Shown here: piece by piece, positions 824-21,018 of the stretch
How the letters are laid out: the number at the start of each line of letters is the position of its first letter
Numbering within the stretch: the stretch's first letter is position 1
IMG/VR virus record: IMGVR_UViG_2740892421_000008
Location: 1 to 21,018 of that record
DNA length: 21,018 bases
DNA from: a virus
Taxonomy: Duplodnaviria; Heunggongvirae; Uroviricota; Caudoviricetes
Direction: 5' to 3' (one strand)
Position numbers and translations under genes: made by a program
Notes under the pieces: model-generated
Told to the model about the DNA's origin: nothing
Databases searched by the model: none
Seen by the model: only the letters and a program-made list of their open reading frames with translations

Positions 824-847
824 GTTTATTTCCTGATTCAGAAAACA

Positions 848-4689: not shown

Positions 4690-4742
4690 CTCCTTTAAAA
4701 AAGAAAAGGCGGCCTGAGCCGCCTGAATGACAGGATCCCGGA

Positions 4743-5261: not shown

Positions 5262-6733
5262 ACTGTCAGTTCCTCCAGCGCCAGTTTATTGTTAATCATT
5301 GCCCGCAGTGTCAGGCGCTCCAGTGGTGACTTCGGCCCAAAGTCATAATCAATATACAACTGCCCTGCCGCCAGGGTTTCTGCAGTGTTCAGTTCATCGT
5401 TCAGCCATGCACTGCCACCGTGGATCGCGCCCAGATTTTTAAGCTGACGCATATAGGCATTAATGCTGCCAAGAATGTCGTCTGCCACATCCCGATCAAG
5501 CGGGCGATCGACATAAGGCAGCATGGCCTCCTGGATGCTGTCCTCAATCACATCTGCAGTGCGGCGTACCGGCTCAAAACGCCACTGACTGTGGGATGTG
5601 CACAGACGGTTACCCCAGTGTTTAAAACCGTCATGGCGAATAATGGTGGAGATATTTTCCATGTTCAGCAGGTTTGCCGTGCAGTTCTGCTCCCCGAGAA
5701 TAAACGTATCCACCTGCTCCAGACCGGTGATATTCATCACGTCCTGGTTTGATTTGGACCACCACCACCCTTTTTCGTAATCAATACGGGCACGCAGCCC
5801 GGCAGCACGAGCCGAATATGGACGAAATATCGTTTGCCCGCTGTCATCCGTCACTGACACGCGCGGACGCAGCAGCTCCACACGCCCACCAAATGACGCG
5901 CGCCGCTGAACCACATCCTGCGGCGTTGCCATTGAGGGCGAGTCAATATAGGCCACAGCCCGCAGCTTCGCGGCATACGTTTCCAGCGCCTTTGCCACGC
6001 CATCATCCTCACTGTACCCCGTGGCGATGAGGATGCGCGGTTGATAGCCTGTCACGCCCTTACTTTCTGTCAGCGCCTCCATGGCCTGAATCACCGCCGC
6101 ACGCTGTTCGGCCTCTTTCGCCTTTGTTTTACTTTCTGCGCGCACCACAATCACCAGCGCCCCAGTCTGGTCAAAAATATCTCGCAGGGCCGGGTATAAT
6201 GTTCCGGCTGTGCCCAGTTTCCCGGCCTGAGTAATGGCCCCTGCCACCACCACTGGTGTATTGACCGGGAACGCCTCATCTTCTCCGCCGGATAACGTCA
6301 GGCTGAACGGCAACACCACTTTATTTTCAGCGTCTCCTGCATTCAGGGTGCTGACAGCCGCCGTCACAGGCGAATCCCCCAGCGCATTCACCACTTCAGT
6401 CACACGGTCCGCCGTGGCGTTAACCTGGCTGTGTTCGTCCGTCCCCAGTGTTATCGTCAGGGTCGTACCTTTCAGCGAGGCCACTGTCTGCGCATTTTGT
6501 TCTGTGGCAGCCACAGCAACAACCGAAATCTTATTACCGGCCCGACCTTCCTGTTTCGCCGTGAAATCCAGCGCCGTTCCCAGCAGCCAGGAGCCGGCTG
6601 TGCCGGAAGCGCACACACCACCAGAGGCGTCCGGCGCTGTCCCCACCAGGCCAATCACTGCCGTGGAGATGGTCTGCACGGCAACCGTGCCTGTCGTCAG
6701 TTCAATGGTTTCAACACCATGTAATCCGGACAT
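5258..6733 (-). CDS. FI: Tail sheath protein (P2 FI-like)
   Basis: 491-aa ORF. The C-terminal two thirds (…RILIATGYSEDDG…RHDGFKHWGNRLCTS…LAAGQLYIDYDFGPKSPLERLTLR…) match the P2 FI sheath pattern (…RDGFRFWGNRTCS…[24 protein letters not shown]…). Strong GGGAGAAA Shine-Dalgarno upstream. Confidence 0.9.
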   Translation of the reverse strand: MSGLHGVETIELTTGTVAVQTISTAVIGLVGTAPDASGGVCASGTAGSWLLGTALDFTAKQEGRAGNKISVVAVAATEQNAQTVASLKGTTLTITLGTDEHSQVNATADRVTEVVNALGDSPVTAAVSTLNAGDAENKVVLPFSLTLSGGEDEAFPVNTPVVVAGAITQAGKLGTAGTLYPALRDIFDQTGALVIVVRAESKTKAKEAEQRAAVIQAMEALTESKGVTGYQPRILIATGYSEDDGVAKALETYAAKLRAVAYIDSPSMATPQDVVQRRASFGGRVELLRPRVSVTDDSGQTIFRPYSARAAGLRARIDYEKGWWWSKSNQDVMNITGLEQVDTFILGEQNCTANLLNMENISTIIRHDGFKHWGNRLCTSHSQWRFEPVRRTADVIEDSIQEAMLPYVDRPLDRDVADDILGSINAYMRQLKNLGAIHGGSAWLNDELNTAETLAAGQLYIDYDFGPKSPLERLTLRAMINNKLALEELTV

Positions 6734-6746
6734 ACATTTCTCCCAT

Positions 6747-6768
6747 AAAAAAACCGCCCTCAGGCGGT
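6747..6768 (-). terminator. Candidate intrinsic terminator between the fibre-assembly gene and the sheath gene
   Basis: Minus-strand transcript reads ACCGCC-UGAG-GGCGGU followed by UUUUUUU (+ strand aaaaaaaccgccctcaggcggt). It sits 20 nt after the fibre-assembly stop and 13 nt before the sheath ATG. Confidence 0.45.
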
Positions 6769-6787
6769 CAGATGATTAACTTCTTTT

Positions 6788-7333
6788 TCAGGTATTTTGT
6801 GGCTGCTCAGGCCAGCTAATATTGTTGTATGTGGTCTTATCCGTAATAGCGCTGAAATCCATCGCCTGCAGCGATTTCGCGTAAATGCGGTACGCTTTCA
6901 GCTTCTCCCTGTCTTCGTCACTGATTAATCCCAGCAGCAGGTCTTTTCCCCATTCGCTGGTCATGATGCTGACCTGTTTTAACAGTGCATCACGCTCATC
7001 TTCCGCTTTAAGTTTGTAGTCAAAAACAAATTCATCATTGCGATAAAACCAGTAACCCGACGCCTCAATGCGACGATTGGCGGTAATATCCGGTAACTCA
7101 ATCACGCTTTTATTTTCCGGGCAGATTGAGGTGATGTCTTTTCCGACCCAGACCACCTCGCCAGTTTCAACATAAATAACTTTCAGAGTGTCTGGCTGAA
7201 ATTTTTCCTGGGCTTCGTGCCATTCCTGACCATCATCGGAGAACAGCCACAATAAAAATTTATGCTGTCGCGCCAGCTGGTATTGCTCAATTGTTTTAGG
7301 GTTTTGTGCCGTAATATTTTTTAAGTGCATCAT
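6788..7333 (-). CDS. tfa: Tail fibre assembly protein (Tfa / P2 gpG-like)
   Basis: 181-aa ORF immediately downstream of fibre gene H, with the size and C-terminal character (…YNNISWPEQPQNT) of enterobacterial phage fibre-assembly chaperones. Confidence 0.8.
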   Translation of the reverse strand: MMHLKNITAQNPKTIEQYQLARQHKFLLWLFSDDGQEWHEAQEKFQPDTLKVIYVETGEVVWVGKDITSICPENKSVIELPDITANRRIEASGYWFYRNDEFVFDYKLKAEDERDALLKQVSIMTSEWGKDLLLGLISDEDREKLKAYRIYAKSLQAMDFSAITDKTTYNNISWPEQPQNT

Positions 7334-7335
7334 AA

Positions 7336-8553
7336 TTACAAACTCGCTACATTCCGCCAGACCCCATTAATCAGAACCTGCACCGGGCGGGCATTGGCCC
7401 AGTCCATACTTTCACCACCGTCAAGACCGCTGATAAGGTGACCTGATGGTGCATTCCCGCCACGCCCAATACCAATGGCACCGCCCAGACGCACATCCTG
7501 TACACCGCCTGTTTTGGTTTGATAGCGGGCATCAAAGTTTCCGTAGTCTGACGGTGTTACCCGACCTGAAACATTCACTGCCCGGTTACTTTGTAACGCG
7601 CCATTCTGAAAACGGAATACGTGCTGACCATTGGCATAAACATCCAGCAGGCCGTCACCATTCTGTTTCAGGCCGGTATCGTTATCTCCGAAAGCAATTG
7701 AGTTTCCACCCAGCGCGTTCTGAACGCCGATACCCAGCGCACCATTGACCTGAGAACCGCCGCCAACAGACACTTTATGCGACATGGATATTTCACCCGT
7801 CCGCAGATTAATAGTGAACGGTCGAAGTGGACCAATATCGCCATTCTCGCCCTGACCTTCACTGGTAGGGATAAGGTGCAGGCACTCTTCCGAACGACGA
7901 AAAATCAGACCAAAGGCTTCGTTGAAAATCCTCAGCGCATTAACACCACGGATTTTCAGTTCCCCGGTCATGGTGTCACCATCACGCTGAACGGCACTTT
8001 TTGCCTTGTCCACCGTAGGTTTTAATCCGAGGTTTTCAACAGCCTCATCCTTGTCTTCCACATCCGAAAGATTCTTTTTTCGTTGCAGATAGCGTCTGTC
8101 TCCGATTTCCTGAGTAATAATGGCCCTGTCCGGATCAACTTCCAGCACCACGTTTTGTGCGTGCGTCAGCCCAAGAACCAGCGTCAGAATAACTTCCTTG
8201 ATAACAGAGTCCGTCTGGTCTGGTAAAAAGGTGTCCGGATAACGCCCGTATGCGATAAGCGTACCACTGTCGCTGATCATCCCCAGTTCACGAAGGGTTT
8301 TACCGGGGTATGATTTGCAGTCAATCACAACATCCCCGCTGATGAATCCCTCCTCCACCGCGCCGTCCGAAAAGGGTTCCTGTCCGAATTCGCCGTACAA
8401 TGATGTCATTGCTGCCATTTCATCCGGCGTGGATGGCAATGCCTGCCCGCCCCCGTCACCAAGCAGAACATGCCGGACGGTCACGGTTTGCCCGTTCTGA
8501 TATGCTGCTTCAATTTCTGCAGCGCCGGACGTTGTCAGAATCAGTCCATTCAT
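7336..8553 (-). CDS. H: Tail fibre protein (P2 gpH-like)
   Basis: 405 aa. The N-terminus (…TTSGAAEIEAAY…HVLLGDGGG…) parallels P2 gpH (…TTAGAAKLAAAT…MAVGDGGG…), and the C-terminal region (ALGGNSIAFGDNDTGLKQNGDGLLDVYANGQHVFRFQNGA…) parallels the gpH C-terminus (ALGGSSIVLGDNDTGFKQNGDGILDVYANSQRVFRFQNGV…). Confidence 0.85.
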   Translation of the reverse strand: MNGLILTTSGAAEIEAAYQNGQTVTVRHVLLGDGGGQALPSTPDEMAAMTSLYGEFGQEPFSDGAVEEGFISGDVVIDCKSYPGKTLRELGMISDSGTLIAYGRYPDTFLPDQTDSVIKEVILTLVLGLTHAQNVVLEVDPDRAIITQEIGDRRYLQRKKNLSDVEDKDEAVENLGLKPTVDKAKSAVQRDGDTMTGELKIRGVNALRIFNEAFGLIFRRSEECLHLIPTSEGQGENGDIGPLRPFTINLRTGEISMSHKVSVGGGSQVNGALGIGVQNALGGNSIAFGDNDTGLKQNGDGLLDVYANGQHVFRFQNGALQSNRAVNVSGRVTPSDYGNFDARYQTKTGGVQDVRLGGAIGIGRGGNAPSGHLISGLDGGESMDWANARPVQVLINGVWRNVASL

Positions 8554-9140
8554 ACACCTGCCTCACTCTGCCCGCCAGTGGGCACTGTCTTTGTTATCAC
8601 ACCGTTACTTCTGATTTTTTCCGTCGCCATCACATAACCGTAACAAAATCCCCGCCCTGTGCTGTTCCCGTAAACGTGAATACTGAACCAGCTGCGCAGA
8701 TTTTTGGCACGGAGCACCGCATGCTTCAGATCCTGATGATCATTCATCAGCACCGGTAAATCCTTCTGCTCCACGTTCAGACGAAAGGTATACGGCTCCC
8801 CGGGTGGGGTCTGCTCATACCACTCAACAATCTGCGATCGGAAGGGACTGTCAGCCAGCGATGCCATCAGCGCCGCTTTAGTCCCTCTGTGGCGGTGGAT
8901 GTAAGCAGCACGTTTTATCGCAGACCTTTTTTCCGTCTCCGTCCAGTGTTCATTCCAGGTATCCACCGCCATTTCCCAGGCCAGCCATGGCAGCAATTCA
9001 GCAGGACATAAATCGGGATTTTTCACATAGCGGATCAGGCAGACCGCTATGTCTGACAGCATATCTCCGGCGACACAGTCCACCACCCGCTCTGCCAGAC
9101 TGGCACTGACCGGCAGTATGCTCCTGATATCGTCATTCAT
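8550..9140 (-). CDS. I: Baseplate/tail protein I (P2 gpI-like)
   Basis: 196 aa; …NPDLCPAELLPWLAWEMAVDTWNEHW… matches the P2 gpI pattern …NPDTCPANLLPWLAWAFSVDRWDEKW…. Overlaps both J and H. Confidence 0.85.
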   Translation of the reverse strand: MNDDIRSILPVSASLAERVVDCVAGDMLSDIAVCLIRYVKNPDLCPAELLPWLAWEMAVDTWNEHWTETEKRSAIKRAAYIHRHRGTKAALMASLADSPFRSQIVEWYEQTPPGEPYTFRLNVEQKDLPVLMNDHQDLKHAVLRAKNLRSWFSIHVYGNSTGRGFCYGYVMATEKIRSNGVITKTVPTGGQSEAGV

Positions 9141-10047
9141 CAGTTGTCTCCACCTTATTCAGCGTTATCTTACGGCACCACGGTGCCTGCCCCATCGCAG
9201 GAACGATATCACTGCCCGGAGAGGTCAGATTCACCGTAATCACCCCGGTCTGGTGAAGGGCACCATCCATGCCAGAACGGGATGCCACCGAGCCAATCCG
9301 GTGGACGCTGTCAGTGTATGACTGCAGCGCCTTGCGGGCATTTGCCATAACCAGTTCACCATCCAGTCCGTAGGGAATATGAATATCCGCCACCACATCG
9401 TAGGGAATAATTTCTGCCGTCCGGACACTGACAAAATCCGTCAGGGGACGGGTTTCATCATCACAGACTGATGCTGCCACCTTATCCAGCAGGGGTTGTG
9501 ATGCAGTGCCATTTCCGGAGCGGGATAACACATAAAGAAAAACCCGGCCTTCCTGCGAATGTGTTTCCGGTCCGTAAGCCTTCACATCCAGCACATCAGG
9601 ATCAGCACTTTGTGCAAAATAGTGATACGCATTTTTCGCGCCGGCGGTGCTGAGCCGTGCCCATGACAACTGGATACGTTCGCGAAAAGCGTCATCATCT
9701 TCATACACCGCCGGCGTGGGCGGAATGGTGCTGTCGTCTGCCGGGGTAATAACCAGCCGCTGAACCTGATAATTCGCGCCAACCTGATCCAGATCGTTCC
9801 CACCGGCACTGGCAAGCAGTACAGCACGGACAGCATCATTTATCTGCTGGCGCATCAGCGCCACCCGATAAGCCAGCGCCTCTGCCCATTTATACGCGGG
9901 ATCAGATTCCACCAGAGCCGAAAACAACGTATCCAGCTCCTGATACTTCGCCACTATCTGAGTGACCAGCACAGCGGTGTCCGGCACCTCCACCGCATCC
10001 GGTACTGGTATCGCGGACAGATCAATAATTGCCTGAGACGTTGCCAA
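9133..10047 (-). CDS. J: Baseplate assembly protein J (P2 gpJ-like)
   Basis: 304 aa; …LVITPADDSTIPPTPAVYEDD…RERIQLS… closely matches P2 gpJ (…LTITPADDSTIPPTPAVMESD…RLRIQQA…). Confidence 0.88.
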   Translation of the reverse strand: MATSQAIIDLSAIPVPDAVEVPDTAVLVTQIVAKYQELDTLFSALVESDPAYKWAEALAYRVALMRQQINDAVRAVLLASAGGNDLDQVGANYQVQRLVITPADDSTIPPTPAVYEDDDAFRERIQLSWARLSTAGAKNAYHYFAQSADPDVLDVKAYGPETHSQEGRVFLYVLSRSGNGTASQPLLDKVAASVCDDETRPLTDFVSVRTAEIIPYDVVADIHIPYGLDGELVMANARKALQSYTDSVHRIGSVASRSGMDGALHQTGVITVNLTSPGSDIVPAMGQAPWCRKITLNKVETTDE

Positions 10048-10378
10048 TTTTTATCTCCTCGAGTCGAATCGTGTCCTGAGTTTCGTTATTCACCCCGACA
10101 AGCGTCAGCCACGCACTTCCTTCTCCTGTCCACGTCACTTCCACCCGCCGGAGAGTCAGACGGGGTTCCCAGCGTTCAAGGGCGGTTACCGTTTCACGGA
10201 CAATTCTCACCCGCGTGAAATCATCCTGTGGGTTATCAAGCAGACTGAAAAGTCTGCTGCCGTATTCCCTGAGCAGGACCCGGCTGCCGACCGGTGTTGA
10301 CAAAATATCAGTGACGGACTGGCGCAGATGTTCGTTACCGTGCAGATATCTGCCGGTGGCTGAATCAATACCAATCAT
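10022..10378 (-). CDS. W: Baseplate assembly protein W (P2 gpW / gp25-like)
   Basis: 118 aa; …DILSTPVGSRVLLREYGSRLFSLLDNPQ… parallels P2 gpW …DILRTPVGSRVMRRDYGSLLASMIDQPQ…. Located between V and J. Confidence 0.85.
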   Translation of the reverse strand: MIGIDSATGRYLHGNEHLRQSVTDILSTPVGSRVLLREYGSRLFSLLDNPQDDFTRVRIVRETVTALERWEPRLTLRRVEVTWTGEGSAWLTLVGVNNETQDTIRLEEIKIGNVSGNY

Positions 10379-10411
10379 GTTGTTTATTCCGGAAAAAGAA
10401 CTGAAAGGGGA

Positions 10412-11035
10412 TTACATTTGCTGACCAGGCTGTCCGGTGCTGCCACCACTGTCGCCCCGGTGATTGTGACCGTTATAGACAATTCTGATTTGACTCATCG
10501 TTCCGTGATAATCAGAAACCTCACCACCGACCATCAGATCCGCCTTAACCACCGCCTCAGCATTCATGGTTGCTTTACCCTGTACGGTCAGGGTATCTGT
10601 GATTTCTACCGGACCGTCCAGGGTTCCCCTGCCTGTAATTTTATAGCTGCCGCCTTCAGCCAGCGTGATGGACAGGACATTAGCCTGACGGTCGTAACGG
10701 ATTTCCGTTCCGGTATCAAACAAAATAACATGTTCGTATTCACTGCCCTCAGGGACAGGAATGGCGTCAATATTGGGCCCCGGATACACCCGACCGTTAC
10801 GCAGATCGCCCGCCTCCGATATCACTGTAACGGCATCTCCGGGGGACGGATAATTACTGACCTGCATGTAGCGCCCGGACTGTACCTGAATCCAGGGCAA
10901 CGGAGGCGAAAGCACATCCCCGATATCCACCCGAACCATCACCGGGCTACCCGGGATCACCTCGTCCACCACGCCGCGACGGACCATGTCCGCCACCCTG
11001 CGGCGTAACTCTGCCACTTCATCCGCCAGACTCAT
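10412..11035 (-). CDS. V: Baseplate spike / assembly protein V (P2 gpV-like)
   Basis: The track ORF 10412..11329 runs through the upstream gene in another frame; the homologous protein starts at the internal ATG 11035..11033 (MSLADEVAELRRRVADMVRRG…) and ends …HGTMSQIRIVYNGHNHRGDSGGSTGQPGQQM. Size (about 207 aa) and the C-terminal H-x-H…GDSGG pattern match P2 gpV. Confidence 0.8.
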   Translation of the reverse strand: MSLADEVAELRRRVADMVRRGVVDEVIPGSPVMVRVDIGDVLSPPLPWIQVQSGRYMQVSNYPSPGDAVTVISEAGDLRNGRVYPGPNIDAIPVPEGSEYEHVILFDTGTEIRYDRQANVLSITLAEGGSYKITGRGTLDGPVEITDTLTVQGKATMNAEAVVKADLMVGGEVSDYHGTMSQIRIVYNGHNHRGDSGGSTGQPGQQM

Positions 11036-11585
11036 CACCGGTGCCCTCCGATTTCCAGATAAGACGATAATCCTGCTCATGTCTCTTGCCGGTTTCCGGT
11101 ACTTTACCCAGCCAGACTTCCTGTAACGGCGCACCTGCCGGAACCGCAAACGGATCTTCGCCGACCGGAATGTCCTGTTCAAAAGAGACACGGAAAACGA
11201 TGTAGTCGTCCAGCAGCCGGTCGAAGGTATCCACCTCAGCATCGATAAAAACCGCCGGATCAACGTTATCCAGCCCGAACGTGGCTCCCTCAATCCAGTC
11301 AGATAAATCCATCGCGAGACAACGGGCAAAAATCTGCGGTTTTGGCACGTTTTCCGTCTTCCCGGCCCGGTCTGTCACCACAAACAGATCACATTTCAGC
11401 GTGACCCGCGTTTGCCCGTCGGCAAAATGAGCCTTGTCCCAGCCCGGTACATCCACAAACACAGCAGGCGTCACCAGTTGCGTCACTTTTTCCGGGTACT
11501 CATCGGCATCTTCCACCCAGGGAATTTGTTTCAGACTGTCAATCACCGCCTGATGCCAGGCGCCCATCATCAATGGCTCCATCAC
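11019..11585 (-). CDS. Hypothetical structural protein at the head-tail junction (putative tail completion / terminator-position protein)
   Basis: 188-aa ORF in the late operon, acidic, translationally coupled on both sides (start overlaps the upstream stop, stop overlaps the gpV start). No family recognised by eye. Confidence 0.5.
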   Translation of the reverse strand: MMEPLMMGAWHQAVIDSLKQIPWVEDADEYPEKVTQLVTPAVFVDVPGWDKAHFADGQTRVTLKCDLFVVTDRAGKTENVPKPQIFARCLAMDLSDWIEGATFGLDNVDPAVFIDAEVDTFDRLLDDYIVFRVSFEQDIPVGEDPFAVPAGAPLQEVWLGKVPETGKRHEQDYRLIWKSEGTGDESGG

Positions 11586-12304
11586 TCCAGCCCCTTAAAT
11601 ACCCGGAATTTCAGTTCATGCTCAAAATTTTTCAGGATCAGTACTTCCGCATCCGGAAAAACAAAATCCTCTATACGGTTCAGCATGGCTTCATAAATAT
11701 CAATTTCCGCTTCACGCACCCTCCGTCGTCCGGATGTCTGTCGGATCAGTATCATTTTCCTTTTTGATATACGTCCGTTACGATTTTCCGCTTCGAACTG
11801 GTTGATAAAGGCATCATCCGTTGACCAGGTGCTGACAGGCAGGGATTCCCCGGCAGGTTTAAAACGGATCTCCCGTGCCTTCCTGCGGTGAGAAGCTGGT
11901 GCAAAACGCCCCCGCTCATCGCGCAACTGATGGCGTTCGCCGCGTCGTCCCCCACTGATGCGTCCGCGCAGATCGCGTACTTTGATGGCGTTCAGACCGA
12001 ACCATACCTTCGCCTCATCAAACTCATCACCGTTACGACGAATGATAAAATTATGCAGAACACGCTTTTTGATCATTTTCTGACTGCGTGGGGCAACCTG
12101 TTTTTTAAACTCTGCCATAGCCTTCATCCGCAGTGCAGACGCGGCTCTTTTCAGCGCCACGCCCCAGGCTTTACGGATCTGACTTTTTGACCCACCCAGT
12201 TTAGCGATAATTTTCAGCACCTCATCTTCATCAATATCGACGACGAGGTTTCGTGCCAGCCGTCGCTGCCGGGCACTGCTTCGTTCATGCTCTCTGACTG
12301 CCAT
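11582..12304 (-). CDS. Hypothetical basic (Arg/Lys-rich) structural protein at the head-tail junction (putative head-tail connector / tail completion)
   Basis: Long ORF on the operon strand between FII-like and gpV. I place the start at ATG 12304..12302 (MAVREHERSS…), giving a 20-nt overlap with the FII stop; the track's start at 12364 would give an 80-nt overlap. The strongly basic composition is reminiscent of lambda gpZ, but no convincing alignment by eye. Confidence 0.45.
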   Translation of the reverse strand: MAVREHERSSARQRRLARNLVVDIDEDEVLKIIAKLGGSKSQIRKAWGVALKRAASALRMKAMAEFKKQVAPRSQKMIKKRVLHNFIIRRNGDEFDEAKVWFGLNAIKVRDLRGRISGGRRGERHQLRDERGRFAPASHRRKAREIRFKPAGESLPVSTWSTDDAFINQFEAENRNGRISKRKMILIRQTSGRRRVREAEIDIYEAMLNRIEDFVFPDAEVLILKNFEHELKFRVFKGLE

Positions 12305-12692
12305 AACGTTTACTCGGTCGTTCCGGTGCAGCAGGTGTATTTCTCCCGGGCTCTCCACGCGCAAGGGTGATGGTAATCACCCCCTGACCCGCAGTGCCTG
12401 ACTCATCCCAGCCGGGATCGACTACCTGATAGGGCTCGCCGTGGATCATGACCCTGTCATATTTTTTCAGACCGGCGGCCCATGCGCTCCGGGTAAATAA
12501 CACGGGTGCAGTATCACGAATTTCGCCGCTGCCAGTGTTCATCCCGGTGTTATCTGCCGGGGCATCAAAAACGGCACGGATTTTTCTTTCCGTGCCGCCC
12601 GGATATATGCTGATTTCCGTCCCCATCGTATCCAGGATGATGTCATCCGCATCACTCATGGCCTGATCGAACAGATTATCGAACATCATCAC
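12285..12692 (-). CDS. FII: Head-tail joining protein, lambda FII-like
   Basis: N-terminus MMMFDNLFDQAMSDADDIILDTMGTE…RAVFDAP matches lambda gpFII MADFDNLFDAAIARADETIRGYMGTS…RGVFDDP. The ORF is 135 aa against 117 aa in lambda, so the 3' end is uncertain. Confidence 0.75.
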   Translation of the reverse strand: MMMFDNLFDQAMSDADDIILDTMGTEISIYPGGTERKIRAVFDAPADNTGMNTGSGEIRDTAPVLFTRSAWAAGLKKYDRVMIHGEPYQVVDPGWDESGTAGQGVITITLARGEPGRNTPAAPERPSKRYGSQRA

Positions 12693-13054
12693 TCCCGGAT
12701 TTTTTCTGCCAGACCGTCTGCCAGCAACGCGGGAACTGTGGCTTCATTAACCAGCACAACACTGGAGGCCCGGGCAAACATCAACATTTTTCCCGTCACA
12801 GCATCACAGGCTGGCATATGCGCCGTTTTCAGCATACGCACCCGGGCGAGTCCCTGCTCAGAATGCATTCCGTCGCCGGATGCATCGTTGCCCACCTCCT
12901 CCTTCCCCGTCTCCTCCCCATCGAATCCGGCGGCCTCCTCCTCCCATTCCGCCAGACGCTGCTCGAGATCGGCTTTTGAACCTGAAATATCTGCTTCACG
13001 CCCCAGAATCACTGCCAGTTCCTGCAAACGTTCAGTCATCTGCTCTTTTGTCAT
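12689..13054 (-). CDS. FI: DNA packaging / head assembly protein, lambda FI-like
   Basis: I place the start at the internal ATG 13054..13052 (MTKEQMTERLQELAVILGREADISGSKADLEQRLAEWEEE…), which parallels lambda gpFI (MTKDELIARLRSLGEQLNRDVSLTGTKEELALRVAELKEE…). The track's longer N-terminal extension would overlap the major capsid gene and the terminator hairpin. Confidence 0.75.
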   Translation of the reverse strand: MTKEQMTERLQELAVILGREADISGSKADLEQRLAEWEEEAAGFDGEETGKEEVGNDASGDGMHSEQGLARVRMLKTAHMPACDAVTGKMLMFARASSVVLVNEATVPALLADGLAEKIRE

Positions 13055-13073
13055 CACATCTCTCCCGTGCGCT

Positions 13074-13099
13074 AAAGAAAAAGGCGGGAATATCCCGCC
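13074..13099 (-). terminator. Candidate intrinsic terminator / attenuator directly after the major capsid gene
   Basis: Minus-strand transcript reads GGCGGGA-UAU-UCCCGCC (perfect 7-bp GC-rich stem, + 13083..13099) followed by UUUUUCUUU. It starts 5 nt after the capsid stop (13105..13107) and lies upstream of the FI-like start at 13054. Confidence 0.45.
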
Positions 13100-13104
13100 C
13101 CGTC

Positions 13105-14133
13105 TTATTTCACCTGAACCACCACAAACGCATCCGGATCCGGCAGCACCATCAACGGCGCAGACTGCGTCATGGTATATTCGCAACCAGGATCCCCCAC
13201 TTCCTCCCAGTGTTTCGGATAACGAATCGCAGAGGTGATCCCTTCACTCAGCGCCTGATTATCCTGGATTGCGCCATAGCAACGGACGCCCTCCGCCTGA
13301 GTGTTTCCCAGAATCAGTGTACCTTCCGGCAGATAACGCTGTTCATCCCCGTTTTCGTCAACATACGTTGTCTTCGCCACCACAATTGCCAGATCGCCGT
13401 AATGACCTTTAAAGGAAACCACGGAGCCCAGGTCTTTCAGTGCCGTTTCCAGCTCAGATTTGGAGCCACGGCGGGTATCCAGTTTCTCACGGAACAGTTT
13501 AAAACCGTTCAGCATACGCCAGACCGTACCGTCCATAATCGCGATATTGATGGTACCGGAAGCAAAATCGCAGTACGCATCAAGATCATGCGTCGGATCG
13601 AAGGTGTCAGCATTCTGCTTTGACCATTCGCGTCCGCCAGCCTGCGTAATGTTATTGGCGGCAGAACGCCCAAAATCCACTTCCACCGTCTCAAACTGCT
13701 CGCCGCTCATAGTGTATTTACCCTGCAGAACAGCACTGACTGCCTGCATTTCTTCCACCTGCACAATCGCCTGCTCTTCCTGTTTCAGGTTGTCCGTCAG
13801 AATACGCAGACGGCGGTAAGCCGGGTCATTAAGGCGGGCCGGATCTTCCCCCGGAAGACGTTCCACAGCCTGCTGATAATCAAAGCGGTGTTTTGGTTTT
13901 ACATAACCGGGACGTAACACGCGGGTTTCACCACCACGGCTGCGCAGCACTTTGCCTGACACCACCGGAGACACATACGCCGCAACCGGTGTTTTGCCGG
14001 TAATTTTATCCAGCATGACTTCCTGAGTATGGAAAGTGATCGTGCGACGAAAGAACAGCTCAAGAAACAGCGCACGAAATTTCACTTTCTGCTCGGTGTA
14101 CCCGAGTAACTGACGCGTGGTAAATAACCCCAT
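13105..14133 (-). CDS. E: Major capsid protein, lambda gpE-like
   Basis: 342 aa, collinear with lambda gpE along its whole length: MGLFTTRQLLGYTEQKVKF…VSPVVSGKVLRSRGG…PGYVKPKH…QVEEMQAVSAVLQGKYTMSGE…KLDTRRGSKSELETALKDLG…MTQSAPLMVLPDPDAFVVVQV. Confidence 0.93.
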   Translation of the reverse strand: MGLFTTRQLLGYTEQKVKFRALFLELFFRRTITFHTQEVMLDKITGKTPVAAYVSPVVSGKVLRSRGGETRVLRPGYVKPKHRFDYQQAVERLPGEDPARLNDPAYRRLRILTDNLKQEEQAIVQVEEMQAVSAVLQGKYTMSGEQFETVEVDFGRSAANNITQAGGREWSKQNADTFDPTHDLDAYCDFASGTINIAIMDGTVWRMLNGFKLFREKLDTRRGSKSELETALKDLGSVVSFKGHYGDLAIVVAKTTYVDENGDEQRYLPEGTLILGNTQAEGVRCYGAIQDNQALSEGITSAIRYPKHWEEVGDPGCEYTMTQSAPLMVLPDPDAFVVVQVK

Positions 14134-14202
14134 AATTTATTTTCCTTCAGAAACACAAACGGGCCGCATCGCGACCCGTTTTTTCAGTTAATCACTTCAC
14201 CA

Positions 14203-14538
14203 TCAGGCGTGGCTGATGGCACTTCCCACAAATGCGTTGGCTTTTTTCACCGCATCCACAGAGTCAGGCCAGACCAGCGACTCAGTGGCAAACGTACCGC
14301 TTTTGTAGTACGTCAGCGTGGGTTCTGTTCCGGTAAGCGCCAGAGCCAGCACCCCCACTGCCGTTCCGGCTTTCTGACCATCCCATGCCACCAGTTTTCC
14401 GGTGGCGTCATCCACCATCAGTGGCGTCAGTGCAGGTGTGGCAGCACTGATACCACTGGTGGCGGTTGCGGTATGCGCCGGATCGCTTCCGGCAAAAATG
14501 CGCACATCTGCACGCTTTTCCGTGGTGGTTTTAATCAT
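14203..14538 (-). CDS. D: Head decoration protein, lambda gpD-like
   Basis: 111 aa; …[37 protein letters not shown]…YYKSGTF…AFVGSAIS… parallels lambda gpD (…[37 protein letters not shown]…FYKSGTF…AFAGTAIS…). Confidence 0.9.
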   Translation of the reverse strand: [111 protein letters not shown]

Positions 14539-14577
14539 TTTTTCAGTCTCCTGATTTATCTGAATTCCGGATACCGC

Positions 14578-15150
14578 TTACGGCATACTCATCAGCAGGT
14601 CTTCTTCCCCGCGCCCGGCAGTTCCGCCACCGGAAACCGCACTGGCAGCATGCTGTGCCATAAAGCGATCAAAAAGTGTTTCCTGTGACGGTTGCGATGC
14701 CGCCGGCGCGGCTGCCAGCAGCGTTTTCGCCTGCGCCACCGTCATTCCTGGCTGTTCTGTCAGTGCCTGTGCAAGTTGTTCGCGCCCTTTCGCCTCCGGC
14801 AGCGCCATAATCTGATCGCCGACACTTGCAGAACCCGCAACCGGTGCCGCCGCCAGTAACGTTTTGGCCTGGTCAACGGTCATTCCCGGCTGTTCAGCCA
14901 GCGCCTGCGCGAGTTGTTCACGCCCTTTTGCTTCCGGCAACGCCATAATCTGATCACCCGTGCTGTCAGTACCGGCAACCGGCGCAGCTGCAAGCAACGT
15001 TTTCGCCTGCTCAACCGTCATTCCTGGCTGACCTGCCAGCATTTGCGCCAGTTGCTCGCGCCCTTTCGCCTCCTGACAATTCAGGATCCCCATCACGCGC
15101 TGATTTTCCTGGACCACCGCTTCAGCAACGGTCAGATTTTTAACTGTCAT
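14578..15150 (-). CDS. nu3: Nested scaffold protein (lambda Nu3-like), translated in the C frame from an internal start
   Basis: Internal in-frame ATG at 15150..15148 is preceded on the minus strand by ACAGGAGGAAACG-ATG, a perfect AGGAGG Shine-Dalgarno (+ 15156..15161) with a 5-nt spacer. Predicted product is 190 aa (MTVKNLTVAEAVVQENQ…) and contains all three repeats. Lambda Nu3 is made the same way from within gene C. Confidence 0.55.
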   Translation of the reverse strand: MTVKNLTVAEAVVQENQRVMGILNCQEAKGREQLAQMLAGQPGMTVEQAKTLLAAAPVAGTDSTGDQIMALPEAKGREQLAQALAEQPGMTVDQAKTLLAAAPVAGSASVGDQIMALPEAKGREQLAQALTEQPGMTVAQAKTLLAAAPAASQPSQETLFDRFMAQHAASAVSGGGTAGRGEEDLLMSMP

Positions 15151-16056
15151 CGTTTCCTCCTGTGTAACAGATTCATTCAGTGCAGAAACCATCACTTCAA
15201 CAGCATCTGCAGCATTAATCAGTTGATCAGCCAGGCCTGCATCAATGCCTGCCTGACCGTCATAAACGGCAGCCTCGGTATTCATCACCGCCTCTGAACT
15301 CAGCCCCGTATAAAGCGCCACCTTGTCGACAAACATCCGGCGGGCCTCATCAATACGGCGCTGAAAATCTGCACGCACACCTGCCGGCAATGCCTGAATA
15401 CTGTTGCCGTCAACCTTGTGCTGCCCGGAGTAAATCAGCGTGATGTCCACCCCTTCCTGTGCCAGTTGTTTCTCGTAACTGGCGTGCGCCATCATCACGC
15501 CAATCGAACCAATTTTTGCCGTCTGCGTGACCAGCCGACGGGTACAGGCTGCCGCCAGCAACATGGCGGCTGAACAGGCCATGTCATTACACAGCGCCCA
15601 CACGGGCTTCTGTTCCCGCAGACGGTAAATCATGTCAGCACAGTCAAACGCCCCGGCAGCCTGACCGCCCGGGCTGTCGATATCCAGCAAAATGCCGCGC
15701 ACATCCGGATCATTCACCGCCATCTGAAGGCGGGCCGTCAGGCCGTCATAGCCAGTCATGCCGGAGTAAGGCCGCAGGGTACCCAGTTTATGCACCAGCG
15801 TGCCGCTCACCGGCAGAATGGCGATGCCATTCTTCACCTGGTAACTCTTTGCCGGACGCTGACCGCCCGCCATATAGTCAGTCACAGCCAGTTGCATTCC
15901 ATCAGCATCAAGCTGAACAGCCTGCTGAGGAACGGCAAGGCTGCCGGCCCCTATCTCCTTACCCAGCGCGCAAAAGAAAACCCGCGCATAGGCGGGTTCC
16001 AGTAAAAGCGGTTCATTAAATGCCATGGCGGCAATATGCGATAAATTACGACGCAT
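14578..16056 (-). CDS. C: Prohead protease / scaffold protein, lambda gpC-like (S49/ClpP-type N-terminal protease domain, repeat-containing C-terminal scaffold domain)
   Basis: 492-aa ORF directly after the portal gene (start overlaps the portal stop). The N-terminal two thirds look like a serine peptidase domain; the C-terminal third carries three tandem copies of a 46-aa module. Confidence 0.88.
   Translation of the reverse strand: MRRNLSHIAAMAFNEPLLLEPAYARVFFCALGKEIGAGSLAVPQQAVQLDADGMQLAVTDYMAGGQRPAKSYQVKNGIAILPVSGTLVHKLGTLRPYSGMTGYDGLTARLQMAVNDPDVRGILLDIDSPGGQAAGAFDCADMIYRLREQKPVWALCNDMACSAAMLLAAACTRRLVTQTAKIGSIGVMMAHASYEKQLAQEGVDITLIYSGQHKVDGNSIQALPAGVRADFQRRIDEARRMFVDKVALYTGLSSEAVMNTEAAVYDGQAGIDAGLADQLINAADAVEVMVSALNESVTQEETMTVKNLTVAEAVVQENQRVMGILNCQEAKGREQLAQMLAGQPGMTVEQAKTLLAAAPVAGTDSTGDQIMALPEAKGREQLAQALAEQPGMTVDQAKTLLAAAPVAGSASVGDQIMALPEAKGREQLAQALTEQPGMTVAQAKTLLAAAPAASQPSQETLFDRFMAQHAASAVSGGGTAGRGEEDLLMSMP
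14698..15072. repeat. Tandem in-frame coding repeats, 138-bp period (about 2.7 copies of a 46-aa module EAKGREQLAQxLxxQPGMTVxQAKTLLAAAPVAG…DQIMALP)
   Basis: The landmark gccataatctgatc recurs on the + strand at 14804 and 14942 (138 bp apart). The three protein copies are near-identical, while the DNA copies differ at many positions. Confidence 0.8.
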
Positions 16057-17617
16057 CGCCTTTTTCTCCCGTTGTCTGTCGGATCTGCTGCTGAAACGTG
16101 TCCTTTATCCAGATGGGGCGGGGAAGACCCGCTGCCTGTCGCTCCTGGCTTTCACGCAGTTGCTGGCGGAAAATCTCCTGATAGTCATCGCCCATCAGGG
16201 CCAGCTCTTTCTCGTACGTGCTCAGGCCACCTTCAATACGCATCACCGCTTCCTGCACTTCCTTAAGGCCATCAATCGCCATGCGACCGGCACCAATCCA
16301 CTCGGCACGACACCATCCGGAACGGGCCTCCCAGAATGAAAAACGGGATTTCGGCGGGCGGATCACACCGCGAATAAGCGCTTCCTCCAGCCAGCAGGCA
16401 AACATCTGTGATGCCAGCCGGCTGGCCACAAATTTTCGTTTGCCCATAAAATACCGCCACGACTCATTGGCGGATGCCCTGGCACTGGAATAACTGACCT
16501 GTGAATAATCACGGGAAAGCTGTTCATAGGACACCCCCAGTCCGGCAGCAATGTAACGTAACAGCGCCTTTTCCAGTTCAGAGAAACCATTATCTGCATT
16601 CTGCGCTGTCTGCAGATTCAGTGAATCCCCCGGATAAAGATGTGGAATACGGACCCCGCCCAGCTTTACCGTATTGGTGGCGTAATAACGCGCGTAGCCT
16701 TTCATGATGGTGTTCAGGGGATTTTTACCGCCATCTCCCACCCCGGCGATATATTCAAATGCTTTTTCCGAATCCAGCGTGGATTCAATCGTCGCGGCAT
16801 ACATCGCCCGCACCACCGCCGACTGCAGTTGCGTGGCCTGCAGTGTGTCGAGCATCTTGAGACGCTCCATGACAGAATAAAACTGGTTGGCCCCGCGCGT
16901 CTGCCCGTCCTCCTGCGGCTGAAACACATGGATCATTCCCGGTCGCCCGGAGGGCAGCGCCGCCGCAATCCGCGTCCAGTTGCTGACACCGTAACCTGGC
17001 CAGTCATCTTCCTGAACATGGTAGGCCAGTGCTTTTCCGTACCGGTTGATTTCCACCCCGGCACGCATAAAACGATCGCCGATGCCATAAACGGGCGTAC
17101 TGACACGTTTCGGGCTGATGGTCTTGAATTTCGTCCGGAATAATGACGTGGATTCCGTATCCCATACGGGCTGGACAAAAATTTCACCGTTAAACGTATG
17201 AACGCCCACCCCTTCACGAATAAATTCGGTAAACGAGCGACGCCCCTCCACATCCATCGAACCAAACACAGGATCGCAATATTCCATCCACGCCGCCTCC
17301 ACATCTTCAATAAAGGCATGCGAATCAGCTTCCGACATCCCCAGCCAGCGCCAGTTGGGCCGGTAGCTCAGGCGAAACATGTGCCCGACGATATGGTCTT
17401 TATGAATTTCCACTGCATTTGCGGCAATACCGTTGTTACGGACCAGATCATCCGCACGGGCGTTACCCAGCTGAATGGAAGGTAAGAGCGCCACATCGGC
17501 ACTTTCCGGTGCAGGCAACCATTCCGCAAGCTGCCCGCCAAATCCGGTACCCCCTCCGGAATATCCCATACTCTGCCGCAATGGCTGCCCGTGCAGATCC
17601 ACCAGTTCCCCGTTCAC
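16046..17617 (-). CDS. B: Portal protein, lambda gpB-like
   Basis: 523 aa, matching lambda gpB along most of its length: …GNARADDLVRNNG…NGEIFVQPVWDT…FRTKFKTISPKR…HVFQPQEDGQTRGANQFYSVMERLKMLDTLQATQLQSAVV…LLRYIAAGLGVSYEQLSRDYSQVSYS…GSGRMAIDGLKEVQEAVMRIEGGLSTYEKE…. Confidence 0.93.
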   Translation of the reverse strand: MNGELVDLHGQPLRQSMGYSGGGTGFGGQLAEWLPAPESADVALLPSIQLGNARADDLVRNNGIAANAVEIHKDHIVGHMFRLSYRPNWRWLGMSEADSHAFIEDVEAAWMEYCDPVFGSMDVEGRRSFTEFIREGVGVHTFNGEIFVQPVWDTESTSLFRTKFKTISPKRVSTPVYGIGDRFMRAGVEINRYGKALAYHVQEDDWPGYGVSNWTRIAAALPSGRPGMIHVFQPQEDGQTRGANQFYSVMERLKMLDTLQATQLQSAVVRAMYAATIESTLDSEKAFEYIAGVGDGGKNPLNTIMKGYARYYATNTVKLGGVRIPHLYPGDSLNLQTAQNADNGFSELEKALLRYIAAGLGVSYEQLSRDYSQVSYSSARASANESWRYFMGKRKFVASRLASQMFACWLEEALIRGVIRPPKSRFSFWEARSGWCRAEWIGAGRMAIDGLKEVQEAVMRIEGGLSTYEKELALMGDDYQEIFRQQLRESQERQAAGLPRPIWIKDTFQQQIRQTTGEKGDAS

Positions 17618-17823
17618 AGCCCCACTCCTGCCGGGGCACGACGCCGTCCGGATACGCCCAGCGCACTTTCCAGCTCTTTAATATACTGGCGTAGTTCACC
17701 AATCGTCGCCCGCGAATACTGAACCTGACGCCCGTCCTTACTGACGGAAACCACAGCACGTCCGATCATCAGTTCATGTAATGCCCGACGGGCATCACAA
17801 AGCATTTCATGCGTATAAACCAT
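17614..17823 (-). CDS. W: Head-tail joining protein, lambda gpW-like
   Basis: 69 aa; …ARRALHELMIGRAVVSVSKDGRQVQYSRATIGELRQYIKELE…RRRAPAG… parallels lambda gpW (…[42 protein letters not shown]…RRRGPAG…). Confidence 0.88.
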   Translation of the reverse strand: MVYTHEMLCDARRALHELMIGRAVVSVSKDGRQVQYSRATIGELRQYIKELESALGVSGRRRAPAGVGL

Positions 17824-17826
17824 TCT

Positions 17827-19743
17827 TTATCCTCCACTCAGTGCAGCCGCGATTTCTTCCAGACTCATCTCATCGTCGTCCTGCTCATCTCTTCTGGCAC
17901 GGGCCAGTGCTTCAAGATCCAGCTGCCACCGCTGAACTGAAATACGCAGGGCAGCATAGGCATATACCAGGCAGTCGAGGGCTTCGTTGCGTCGCCCTTT
18001 TTTATCCCACAGCAGTTTCACCCTGCCATTAACCACCTTCTCCACCAGCTCTTCCGCCACGATCTGACGCGCCTCTTCTTCCGAAAAAATGTCGGGGTTA
18101 TCCGGAAAACGGACGGTATACGGGGCGGCTTCACTGACAGAGACCACTGGCAGGGCAAAACGGGCGTACAGCATTTCCTTGACGGTATCGGAGCCCACCT
18201 CACACAAAAACACACCACGCTGGTTGCGCTTTTTGGGCATGGTGATCACCGGCTTGCCGTACACCGATGCCCCTTTTATGGGAAGCACAAAAAAAGTGCC
18301 GTGTTTCCTGGAACGCTGATACACAATGTCCTGGTCGATACCACCGGTATCCCAGCAGACACGGGAAATGGAAATTTCAGTACCGTCAGCATGACGATAT
18401 TTTTTCCGGATCACCGTATCAACACGTTTAAGGGTGTCCTCGTCTTCCGGTCGCCCCATGATAATTTGCTTATCAATCAGAAAGGCTTCTTCGCCGGGAG
18501 CCCAGCCCCAGACATAAATTTCATAGCGATCTTTCTGGGAGTCGATCCCGGCGGTCAGGTAAACCACCCGCAGGGGAACCTGCGCACCATAGTGGCAGAC
18601 TTTTTCCAGCAACAACTCAAAGCTCAGTTTTTCTGCCACGGCCTCTTCATAGGGCTCCCCGAGCGTGGTGTTAATAAACGTCTTAACACCGTTCGGATCC
18701 TTCAGCGCATCCAGCCAGTCATAAACAATCTGTACCCAGGTGGTGAACGGACTGTACGCTGTCCACACGTGGTACGTGATTGAGCGCGGTGGCGGCATCT
18801 CCTCATCACCGGCGCTGTAAAATGCCAGGCCGTCGCGCGTCCACATCCCGGTATTGTCACAAATCCAGCGCCCGTCGGTCTGGTCAAGTTCCGACTGCCG
18901 GATCACACAGCCATTATGTTCACACAGGTAATACACCGTTTCCGGTTTACCCTTCTCCCATTTCAGGCCAAACGGCGTCGCATCATCGCCAAACTTCAGA
19001 TACTGGGCCTCCCCGCAATGAGGGCAAGGGACATAAAACCGCATGAAATGCGCAGATTCATTCGCGGCTTTCTCAATCTGGCAGGAGCCTTTAATTTTCG
19101 GCGTTGAGCCGCGTATGGATTTAGGCCATACCGAGCCTTCGATACGTTTATCGCCAAGCAGCGTCGGCGAGCCTTCTTTTTCCACATCCGGTTCAAACGA
19201 GGAGAGTTCGTCATAGCAGACCACATCCACAGATTTTTCACGGTAGTTTTTAGCTGCGGCACCGCCCAGGCACCAGAACCCCACGCCGGAGGAAAAACGC
19301 TTCAGGGTAAGTGTATTATCGCGGTGCTTTCTTCCGTACCATGGAGCCAGCTCCAGCAATGCAGGGACATCCCTGATCGTTGGCTCAACATGAGATTTCA
19401 TGAAATCTTCTGCCGCAGAATCTGTTGGCTGAAAAAGCAGACTGTTACGGGATTTATGCTCAATAAAATAAGCCTCCACCCCCAACAGCATTTTGGTGTA
19501 ACCAACGCGCGCCGATTTAATCAGATTAACGGTGCGGATCCGGTCATTTCCCATGCTGTTCATAATGGCAACCTGAAACGGCAGGGTTTCCCATTGTCCG
19601 GGAGTGTATGAAGATTCTTTCGGCAGATAATAATGTTGATCAGCCCACTGAACCGTCGTCAGTGGAACCGGAATATTGAGAGATAAAAGCCCTGTAGCTA
19701 TCGCACCGGCTGCATTAGCTGCCTTCTGTGCGTCTGAAATCAT
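17827..19743 (-). CDS. A: Terminase large subunit, lambda gpA-like
   Basis: Collinear with lambda gpA: …[25 protein letters not shown]…[14 protein letters not shown]…FIEHK…[16 protein letters not shown]…[14 protein letters not shown]…[14 protein letters not shown]…[25 protein letters not shown]…[18 protein letters not shown]. The track start (19785) adds 14 residues; I prefer ATG 19743..19741, which gives lambda-like spacing to the WAD motif and a 29-nt overlap with the small subunit. Confidence 0.93.
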
Positions 19744-20263
19744 CAATCCACCTGCCCACGTTTTCACCGGCTTTAGCTGCAACATTGGAGGCTTTCGCGA
19801 TTTCAGTTTTCACCACATCAAGGTGTGATGGTGAAATATCCGGATATTTACGCTGTAATGTCAGCGGCACACGTACAAGTATCCCCGAAATCTCCTGTGC
19901 CACACGTTGCAGAATGAAGGTAAACAATTCCGTTTCCAGCACCAGCCCTTCTTCACGGGCATTTTTCAGCTCCTGTGCGTCAGCCTGTGCTTTGGTGAGC
20001 CGGTAGCGTTCATAGTCAATGGTGCCGGGTTGTAAATCTGATTCTGCAGCCGCACGCAAATCTTCCAGTTCTTTGCGGAGCTTTTCGTTTTCGATATCTT
20101 TTTCCCGCTGCGCATACCACTCAATGGCTTCTGCAGTATTGAACATGGCTTCGATACCTTTGCCTCCCCCCGACAAAACTCTCAGCCCCTGACTTTGCCA
20201 GCCAGTGATTGTTCTGACATCGCACTCAAAAATTTCCGCCAGTTTCTTTTTGTTAACCTTCAC
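19715..20263 (-). CDS. nu1: Terminase small subunit, lambda Nu1-like
   Basis: 182 aa; (M)[11 protein letters not shown]…[20 protein letters not shown]…[48 protein letters not shown]… parallels lambda Nu1 (MEVNKKQLADIF…GGGKG…[47 protein letters not shown]…). The start codon is GTG (20263..20261) with GAGG about 10 nt upstream. Sits directly downstream of the cos repeats. Confidence 0.9.
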
Positions 20264-20460
20264 GGCACATATTCCTCACAAAAAGAAGAAAGGATCTCAA
20301 AACGCTTTTTTCAGCGAAAAATCACCGCTGCCAGATCCTTTCTTTTTTTTAAGAAAACCCTATTAAACAACAGGTTAGCCAGAAGAAGAACGGATCTGCT
20401 TTTTCCCTGAAAATTTTCATAAATAGCGCGTTTTTGCGCGTCCCCAGACCCTCGGTGTTT
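20264..20460 (-). other. cos site: predicted cosN (about 20436..20458) plus cosB with three Nu1-binding-type repeats (R3-like 20381..20399, inverted R2-like 20332..20349, R1-like 20281..20298)
   Basis: On the minus strand the region reads gggtctggggacgcgcaaaaacgCGCTATTTATGAAAATTTTCagggaaaaagcagatcCGTTCTTCTTCtg…, collinear with the lambda left end GGGCGGCGACCTCGCGGGTTTTCGCTATTTATGAAAATTTTCCGG…CGTTTCCGTTCTTCTTCG. The motif AGAAGAA(A/C)GGATC occurs twice in direct and once in inverted orientation, with 100 bp between the outer copies, as for lambda R3/R2/R1. Confidence 0.75.
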
Positions 20461-20593
20461 CAGGTTCTGGAAAGGACCCATAAAAAAGAGAACAATTATC
20501 ATTGCATTGAAGACATCAATCTTGTTGTATTGCCACAAATCAGGGCCATTAAACAAACATGTCAAAGAATAACAATTCAAAGTGACCTGCCAA

Positions 20594-20839
20594 TTAATAG
20601 GCCTGATAACTAATTAATGATATTTCCGTTTTCCCGCTAGAATATGTTCTATAATGCAGGATAACTTTTGTATTTTCATTCAAAGCATTAATTATTGATT
20701 GTTTTGATATGTCTGGAAATTGGTTTTGAATATCAGCAACCAATGTTTCAAGATAAAGATCAACCTCTCTGCGCGGTGGTACACAACATAAATTGTATAA
20801 ATAGTTATTAACTATATTCGTAACATTTCTCATGCCCAC
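20594..20839 (-). CDS. Hypothetical small protein (about 79-81 aa) in the AT-rich segment to the right of cos
   Basis: Only ORF of 60 aa or more in the low-GC stretch; co-directional with the late genes. Track start is GTG 20839 (GAGG 4 nt upstream); alternative ATG at 20833. No family recognised; AT-rich codon usage unlike the structural genes. Confidence 0.3.
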   Translation of the reverse strand: MGMRNVTNIVNNYLYNLCCVPPRREVDLYLETLVADIQNQFPDISKQSIINALNENTKVILHYRTYSSGKTEISLISYQAY

Positions 20840-20940
20840 AATGCCTCATGATAAAAAATATTAACCTGTATTCACTCCTGATATAATATCATAAAAAAAA
20901 TCCAACTTATCCTTTCCATCAAAGTGGTAATGACTCCAAC

Positions 20941-21018
20941 TTATTGATAGTGTTTTATGTTCAGATAATGCCCGATGACTTTGTCATGCAGCTCCACCGA
21001 TTTTGAGAACGACAGCGA
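20941..21018 (-). CDS. 3' end of an unidentified gene entering from beyond the right window edge
   Basis: One minus-strand frame is open from the window edge and stops at TAA 20943..20941 (…SLSFSKSVELHDKVIGHYLNIKHYQ*); the other two minus frames stop within 20 codons of the edge. Only 26 codons are visible. Confidence 0.3.
   Translation of the reverse strand, partial: SLSFSKSVELHDKVIGHYLNIKHYQ

Follow-up and report, generated by a model that had tools for sequence, protein, structure and literature searches.

A putative scaffold gene nested in frame within the prohead protease gene of a lambda-type phage head operon

A gene on the minus strand (14578..16056) of a 21,018-nt stretch of caudoviral DNA, the whole of which is hereafter called the window, appears to make two proteins in the same frame: a prohead protease fused to a scaffold domain, and a nested scaffold protein that would start at an internal ATG next to a strong Shine-Dalgarno (SD) sequence. 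A probability of about 0.88 is assigned to this reading. By its sequence the ORF is a homologue of lambda gene C. We infer the independent translation of the nested product from homology and conservation, and initiation at 15150, the stoichiometry of the two products and their roles in assembly are proposed by analogy with better characterized phages.

The window combines a head module of the lambda type with a contractile tail module of the P2 type, and has 99.2-99.9% identity to a prophage carried by E. coli ETEC1746, the head genes of which are named in RefSeq. The ORFs of the head module follow the order of the lambda head operon, i.e. terminase, W, portal, C/Nu3, decoration, capsid and FI, with gene names taken from the RefSeq record of this 99%-identical prophage; the identities of the small terminase subunit and of FI in the window were confirmed. 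The genes of the operon are:

19715..20263, minus strand: small terminase
17827..19785, minus strand: large terminase
17614..17823, minus strand: W-like joining protein
16046..17617, minus strand: portal
14578..16056, minus strand: gpC-type prohead protease-scaffold fusion gene (492 aa, 51.7 kDa, stop included)
14203..14538, minus strand: decoration protein
13105..14133, minus strand: major capsid protein
after the major capsid gene, minus strand: FI-like gene

Two antisense ORFs in this region, 14914..15297(+) and 14209..14688(+), are without a Pfam match and were treated as spurious; no opposite-strand gene is indicated at the scaffold locus, and Rfam and tRNA scans of the whole window returned no matches.

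The assignment of the longer product as a head maturation protease is based on several lines of evidence. The whole 492-aa protein matches phrog_53 (head maturation protease; E=1.6e-205) and is 57% identical to lambda C; Peptidase_S49 (PF01343) is found by Pfam on residues 146-290 (E=2.4e-33), and the SppA chains 3rst and 4kwb of the PDB match residues 76-289 (E~2e-16). Pfam and PHROG searches with the 492-aa protein gave no match to other head protease families. In alignments Lys214, like Ser162, is invariant among four homologues, and both residues are the same in lambda and phage 21; in lambda, Ser166 is presumably the catalytic residue. The corresponding features are:

15187..15831, minus strand: S49 (SppA/ClpP-fold) protease domain, about residues 76-290, from the Pfam and PDB SppA matches
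15571..15573, minus strand: codon of the conserved Ser162, invariant among the four homologues

The protease gene, from its ATG on, shares 11 nt (16046..16056) with the 3' end of the portal gene. E. coli records contain a protein identical to the 492-aa product under the name 'S49 family peptidase', and the 190-aa product has no separate entry there; the PGAP annotation of the gene is of the full-length protein only. A word-indexed protein search returned mostly partial S49 peptidase fragments.

The proposed start of the scaffold is found beyond the protease domain, where the minus strand reads ...GTTACACAGGAGGAAACGATGACAGTTAAAAATCTG..., with the following elements:

15156..15161, minus strand: internal Shine-Dalgarno AGGAGG (codons cAG GAG Gaa, peptide Q-E-E), 5 nt 5' of the ATG
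15151..15155, minus strand: spacer AAACG, between AGGAGG and ATG
15148..15150, minus strand: internal in-frame ATG, codon 303 of 492, the proposed scaffold start

An earlier note on this DNA had described AGGAGG, a 5-nt spacer and an in-frame ATG at 15150..15148 inside a C-like ORF, and direct reading of the strand found these coordinates to be exact. According to Pfam and the SppA structures, the ATG lies 13 residues past the end of the S49 fold (~residue 290), in the linker. With an SD:anti-SD energy of -10.3 kcal/mol the site ranks 1 of the 46 in-frame ATG, GTG and TTG codons of the ORF, and it is stronger than each of 17 presumptive gene starts of the window (best of those scored, -9.3) and than the protease gene's own start at 16056 (-7.4 kcal/mol). 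The note had further held that a perfect SD inside a coding sequence is unlikely by chance, an argument that fails when taken alone: for AGGAGG-N4-9-ATG the window has two matches where 0.94 would be expected, and two or more turned up in 23 of 100 shuffles. The match away from the scaffold start (12883..12900, minus strand) does not share the reading frame of the FI-like gene in which it lies. The chance expectation falls to about 0.011 when this one ORF and frame are specified in advance, a figure narrower than the search made, which had covered the whole window. About 29% of the synonymous recodings of the peptide QEE yield an equal SD strength, and the codon choice of the window itself at this place is weak evidence for a start site. 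That the site is not a product of chance is concluded from the rank of the SD, from its place just after the protease fold and from its conservation in relatives. RNA folding around the internal ribosome-binding site gave z = -0.68 and hence no sign of a regulatory fold; as a promoter/terminator scan showed nothing promoter-like on the minus strand close to the internal start, a separate transcript is not indicated.

Translation from the internal ATG would yield a protein that begins MTVKNL and has its frame, stop and C-terminus in common with the protease, with the following features:

14578..15150, minus strand: nested Nu3/gp6-like scaffold ORF (190 aa, 19.5 kDa, pI 4.7, stop included)
14979..15116, minus strand: scaffold repeat 1 (138 nt, 46 aa), ...RVMGILNCQEAKGREQLAQMLAGQPGMTVEQAKTLLAAAP..., the equivalent of the phage 21 Tri1 box
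14841..14978, minus strand: scaffold repeat 2 (138 nt, 46 aa)
14703..14840, minus strand: scaffold repeat 3 (138 nt, 46 aa)
14581..14702, minus strand: C-terminal tail common to protease and scaffold, about 41 aa, FDRFMAQH...EEDLLMSMP

The 190-aa product matches phrog_8399 (head scaffolding protein; E=1.1e-42) and phrog_8940 (capsid assembly protein; E=3.1e-36). The suggestion that the internal product would consist almost entirely of the repeat-bearing scaffold domain is borne out by its computed make-up of three 46-aa repeats and the tail, in 190 aa and 19.5 kDa. The repeats were recovered as three 46-aa units by a separate repeat search, Tandem Repeats Finder at default settings having reported none. 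The scaffold domain is Ala/Gln-rich, and AlphaFold models the 190-aa product as helical throughout, each repeat forming three short helices (mean pLDDT 67, pTM 0.26); such a model, of moderate local confidence and with no fixed global fold, is compatible with a flexible scaffold. A Foldseek search of the PDB with this model gave no meaningful match. The motif D-x-L-(L/M)-x-x-P of the tail is kept in alignments with phage 21 and lambda, and the shared tail may represent the capsid- or portal-binding end. A free-standing homologue with two repeats is found in Bradyrhizobium, hence the repeat domain is able to exist as a protein of its own.

The closest counterpart among phages is gene 5 of phage 21 (GenBank M81255.1 and OL657228.1), which is the best phage match, with 65% amino-acid identity over the full length. 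Both records carry a nested in-frame gene 6 within gene 5, with its own ribosome-binding site GAGGAGG-N4-ATG and a product named 'head-tail preconnector gp6' or 'scaffolding protein', and the internal ATG of the window aligns with the ATG of gene 6. The S49 protease-scaffold fusion, the C-terminal tail and the portal-C-decoration-capsid synteny are common to the two, and the three 'Tri box' repeats of phage 21, of about 46 aa each, correspond one-to-one to the repeats of the window. The two differ in the linker peptide (TQEET in the window, VRGGT in phage 21), in the codon phase of the SD, in the SD-ATG spacer (5 and 4 nt, respectively), in the mutual similarity of the three repeats, which are far more alike in the window, and in the tail, which is of the P2-type contractile kind in the window and that of a lambdoid siphovirus in phage 21.

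In lambda, the aligned junction, at codon 309 of C, reads TCAGGAGGGCGA-ATG, with AGGAGG at 5332-5337 and ATG at 5342-5344 (AGGAGG-N4-ATG); no other internal start of C scores as well (-10.8 kcal/mol), and lambda 5342 is the counterpart of the window site. Lambda C and the window gene have in common the S49 protease and an in-frame nested scaffold gene with the C-terminus of the protease, their identity being mostly in the protease part. Nonsense mutations in the upstream part of lambda C do not do away with scaffold function, the C-/Nu3+ pattern. Lambda has one 46-aa unit and an unrelated insert of ~50 aa after the junction start, the product of which would be of 131 aa, against 190 aa in the window. 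The RefSeq record (NC_001416) places the nu3 start elsewhere, at 5132 (codon 239). Published papers present C as the S49 protease and Nu3 as an essential scaffold, and cite Shaw & Murialdo 1980 for the C/Nu3 overlap (PMC8508860 among them). Gene 6 of phage N15 is recorded as a head scaffolding protein with an 'internal in-frame translational start within gene 5 (assigned by similarity with lambda)'; the nested arrangement is that of the window, but N15 is lambda-like, with a single repeat. In the gpC homologue of Gifsy-1, which has three repeats as in the window, ACAGGAGGCACT-ATG at the junction is the top-ranked internal start, and the record annotates the full-length protease only. The lambda C/Nu3 arrangement proposed in the earlier note is thus supported by the S49 domain, by the scaffold families matched, by synteny and by the homologous starts of phage 21, N15 and lambda; the junction SD and ATG and the position in the operon are likewise those of a C/Nu3-type gene.

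Analogous nested or fused protease-scaffold genes are I/Z of phage Mu, gpO of P2 and UL26/UL26.5 of herpesviruses, in which the scaffold and the maturation protease share a C-terminal domain that allows the protease to enter the procapsid. Their proteases are of the herpesvirus assemblin-like, S78 or U35 types, not S49, and no sequence homology of the window gene to any of them was found in this analysis. To our knowledge, P2 has no separate internally initiated scaffold.

How the junction start fares among relatives was followed in 80 viral contigs, four genomic loci and several annotated phages; a single-protein search of genome contigs had found 5 loci, close relatives only. The gene is present in 89 sequences: the window, lambda and 87 related loci. 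All 89 have the junction ATG, and in 88 of them an SD of -7.4 kcal/mol or better stands before it, the sole exception being AAAGAGGA at -5.8. The sequences with a junction start comprise 15 distinct junction sequences in 13 peptide contexts, including TQEET, TKENA/T, TQENT, TQEDR, VRGGT, DTGGT and KTGGT, further ERGGT, TTGGT, LSGGR and RKEDK, and others. The codon phase of the GGAG core varies as well, from cAG GAG Gaa in the window and aGA GGA GGc in phage 21 to tcA GGA GGg in lambda and att GGA GGA in N15. Since the linker residues drift while the SD and the ATG persist, the pattern bears the mark of selection acting on the nucleotide sequence.

In each enterobacterial lineage the junction site is in the top 1-4% of codon positions for upstream SD strength, and its rank among the in-frame starts is between 1 and 3. 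The junction SD of lambda, phage 21 and Trabulsiella depends on rare codon choices, as no more than 0.9-3.9% of the synonymous recodings reach the same strength. A Pseudomonas phage has retained CAGGAGAACACC-ATG, which comes first among its internal starts; relatives from Aeromonas and Vibrio have no more than AGGAA as their junction SD, and there the site does not lead the ranking. On other contigs gene calls begin exactly at the homologous Met (MPQLTATEAA..., MPELTAKEAA..., MSETQLTAAQ...).

Could the gene give the 492-aa fusion only, with no internal initiation, the scaffold part acting in cis or being freed by autoproteolysis in the manner of P2 gpO? The SD-like hexamer and the Met would then be by-products of the amino-acid sequence of the linker. 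Such an explanation, which we regard as improbable, can draw on the motif count in the window, which is not above chance, and on the ease with which an SD-like sequence arises from QEE (about 29% of recodings); it can also draw on the second AGGAGG of the ORF, which stems from coding sequence alone, where the first repeat encodes C-Q-E-A, and has no ATG after it, on the PGAP listing of the full-length protein alone, and on the description of P2 gpO as a single protease/scaffold gene. It is difficult to reconcile, however, with the retention of SD and ATG (88/89) across 13 peptide contexts and several codon phases when the linker peptide is not kept, with the SDs of lambda, phage 21 and Trabulsiella that depend on rare codons, with the junction site being the top-ranked internal start in most lineages, and with the annotation of the nested genes of phage 21, N15 and lambda as separate products. 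A gene of the P2 gpO type is, moreover, marked by having no conserved internal start, whereas a strong and conserved SD and ATG are found at the junction here.

Internal SD-like sequences have also been proposed as ribosome pause sites, a proposal that was later disputed, and the location of the SD 13 residues past the end of the protease fold would suit an elongation pause at the domain boundary that aids folding of the protease, the SD then being mainly something other than a start signal. This is considered very improbable: an in-frame ATG 3-6 nt downstream would not be needed for pausing, yet it is present in 89/89 sequences, and neither a conserved RNA structure nor any other such feature is present. 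Least credible of all is a scaffold start further upstream, equivalent to the lambda RefSeq nu3 start (codon 239 of C), with a product of about 250 aa, although nu3 begins at lambda 5132 in both RefSeq NC_001416 and the phage 434 record. The window and phage 21 have Ile in place of this Met, and the position is inside the S49 fold; for these reasons lambda 5132 is not taken to be the conserved start, and a start of this type was ruled out for the window gene on account of the aligned Ile. The nearest in-frame ATG of the window, codon 241, has a weak SD (-5.6); in lambda itself the SD of codon 309 reaches -10.8 as compared with -7.4, at 12-nt spacing, for codon 239; and N15 and phage 21 annotate the downstream site.

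Two same-frame products from one gene, as favoured here, would arise from one late mRNA with two initiation sites. Initiation at 16056 would give the 492-aa prohead protease with its C-terminal scaffold domain, and the modest SD and the portal overlap at this start suggest coupling to translation of the portal gene. The stronger AGGAGG (15161..15156) would direct initiation at ATG 15150, giving the 190-aa scaffold, identical to the last 190 residues of the protease and thus made of the three helical repeats and the conserved tail. If the gene behaves as lambda C/Nu3 and phage 21 gp5/gp6 do, the scaffold would be made in excess and would drive assembly of the major capsid protein around the portal. 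The protease would co-assemble with the scaffold because the repeat domain and the tail are common to both, the shared C-terminal domain taking a small number of protease molecules into the procapsid. Before DNA packaging, the protease would then clear away both the scaffold and itself.

The nested C/Nu3-type arrangement has been known for decades, and the window gene is an unannotated orthologue, with nothing biologically new beyond the lambda and phage 21 paradigm except, possibly, the variation in repeat copy number. Automated annotation (e.g. by PGAP) yields an 'S49 family peptidase' and misses the scaffold, and hundreds of E. coli prophage records are alike in this respect; the protein overlooked would be expected, if it resembles lambda Nu3, to be abundant and essential for head assembly. 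The comparative data also point to the junction AGGAGG-ATG (lambda codon 309), and not to the upstream ATG of RefSeq, as the conserved Nu3-type start.

As for the repeats, one copy of the 46-aa unit is found in lambda, two in the loci L023 and L024, three in the window and phage 21, four in most E. coli relatives and five in the locus L021, and some phage 21-like proteins have in-repeat deletions. Copy number thus differs between head modules that are nearly identical in other respects: the window and its 99%-identical E. coli relative differ by exactly one 138-nt unit, and unequal recombination is the simplest explanation. No earlier description of copy-number variation of this scaffold repeat was found. 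The 46-aa repeat (Tri box) would be a module of variable copy number, from 1 to 5, and that the number is under selection and could tune assembly is a tentative and rather doubtful proposal, the functional meaning of repeat number being speculative. Should selection be at work, and not neutral recombination, repeat number could set the valency or length of the scaffold and, with it, the fidelity or size of the T=7 procapsid, in which case these phages would provide a natural allelic series for scaffold multivalency.

In the RefSeq record of lambda (NC_001416), the CDS of nu3, the scaffold gene nested in frame within the protease gene C, starts at an ATG at record position 5132 (2333 in the lambda locus L004), that is, at codon 239 of C. 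This start codon falls within the protease fold, and both the window and phage 21 have Ile as the matching residue. In lambda, the conserved AGGAGG-N4-ATG is found at codon 309 of C (record 5332..5344; L004 2533..2545), and it is at the site homologous to this codon that the scaffold start is annotated in N15 and phage 21. Because these two annotations agree on the downstream site, nu3 is probably over-extended in the lambda and 434 records.

A second match in the window, AGGAGG-N9-ATG at 12883..12900 (minus strand), does not share the frame of the FI-like ORF at 12689..13186 (minus strand), and no long ORF starts from it. It was therefore taken as a chance match, and as such provides a useful control for the background rate of the AGGAGG-ATG motif. 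The C ORF itself contains a second AGGAGG hexamer (window 15073..15078, nt 981-986 of the ORF), and CCGGAGGCGAAAGGG strings, related to AGGAGG, also recur within its scaffold repeats. Such recurrence results from the conservation of the codons for (Q/P)-E-A-K-G, and no start codon is present at a usable distance downstream of either string inside the repeats.

The prophage (window 1..21018) is a mosaic that combines a lambda-type head module with a P2-type contractile tail module:

Head module, lambda-type: terS, terL, W, portal, C/Nu3, D, E, FI
848..2614: tail, U/X/D-like genes
2611..4263: tail, tape measure
4743..5261: tail, tube
5258..6733: tail, sheath
Tail, baseplate V/W/J/I
Tail, fibre

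In the tail assembly chaperone-like gene (phrog_166; 4381..4689, minus strand), a slippery run, G TTT TTT TG, is found at about 4417..4425, followed downstream by an overlapping ORF in another frame (4209..4457, minus strand), an arrangement that looks like a programmed -1 frameshift of the P2 E/E' (lambda G/GT) type. The window ends in IS1 terminal sequence (GGTAATGACTCCAACTTATTGATAG...; 20926..21018), and in the near-identical E. coli prophage L003 an IS1A transposase is annotated at the corresponding position, which lies upstream of the gene for the small terminase subunit.

The number of copies of the 138-nt (46-aa) scaffold repeat (window 14703..15116; loci L003, L010-L024) differs between close relatives: one in lambda, two in L023 and L024, three in the window and phage 21, four in L003, as in most E. 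coli relatives, and five in L021. Between the window and L003, which are 99% identical, one repeat unit is the sole difference in the C gene. Within-repeat deletions are seen in some phage 21-like proteins (P0026, P0031). Two repeats of the same type (…PEAAGREALA…VDEARA.LAAAP…) also form part of P0050, a 163-aa protein encoded by a stand-alone gene in a prophage-like region of Bradyrhizobium (L096 4001..4492), where the gene next to it, coding for 297 aa, matches no PHROG. No S49 protease gene is adjacent to the P0050 gene and, therefore, the repeat domain also occurs as an independent small protein.
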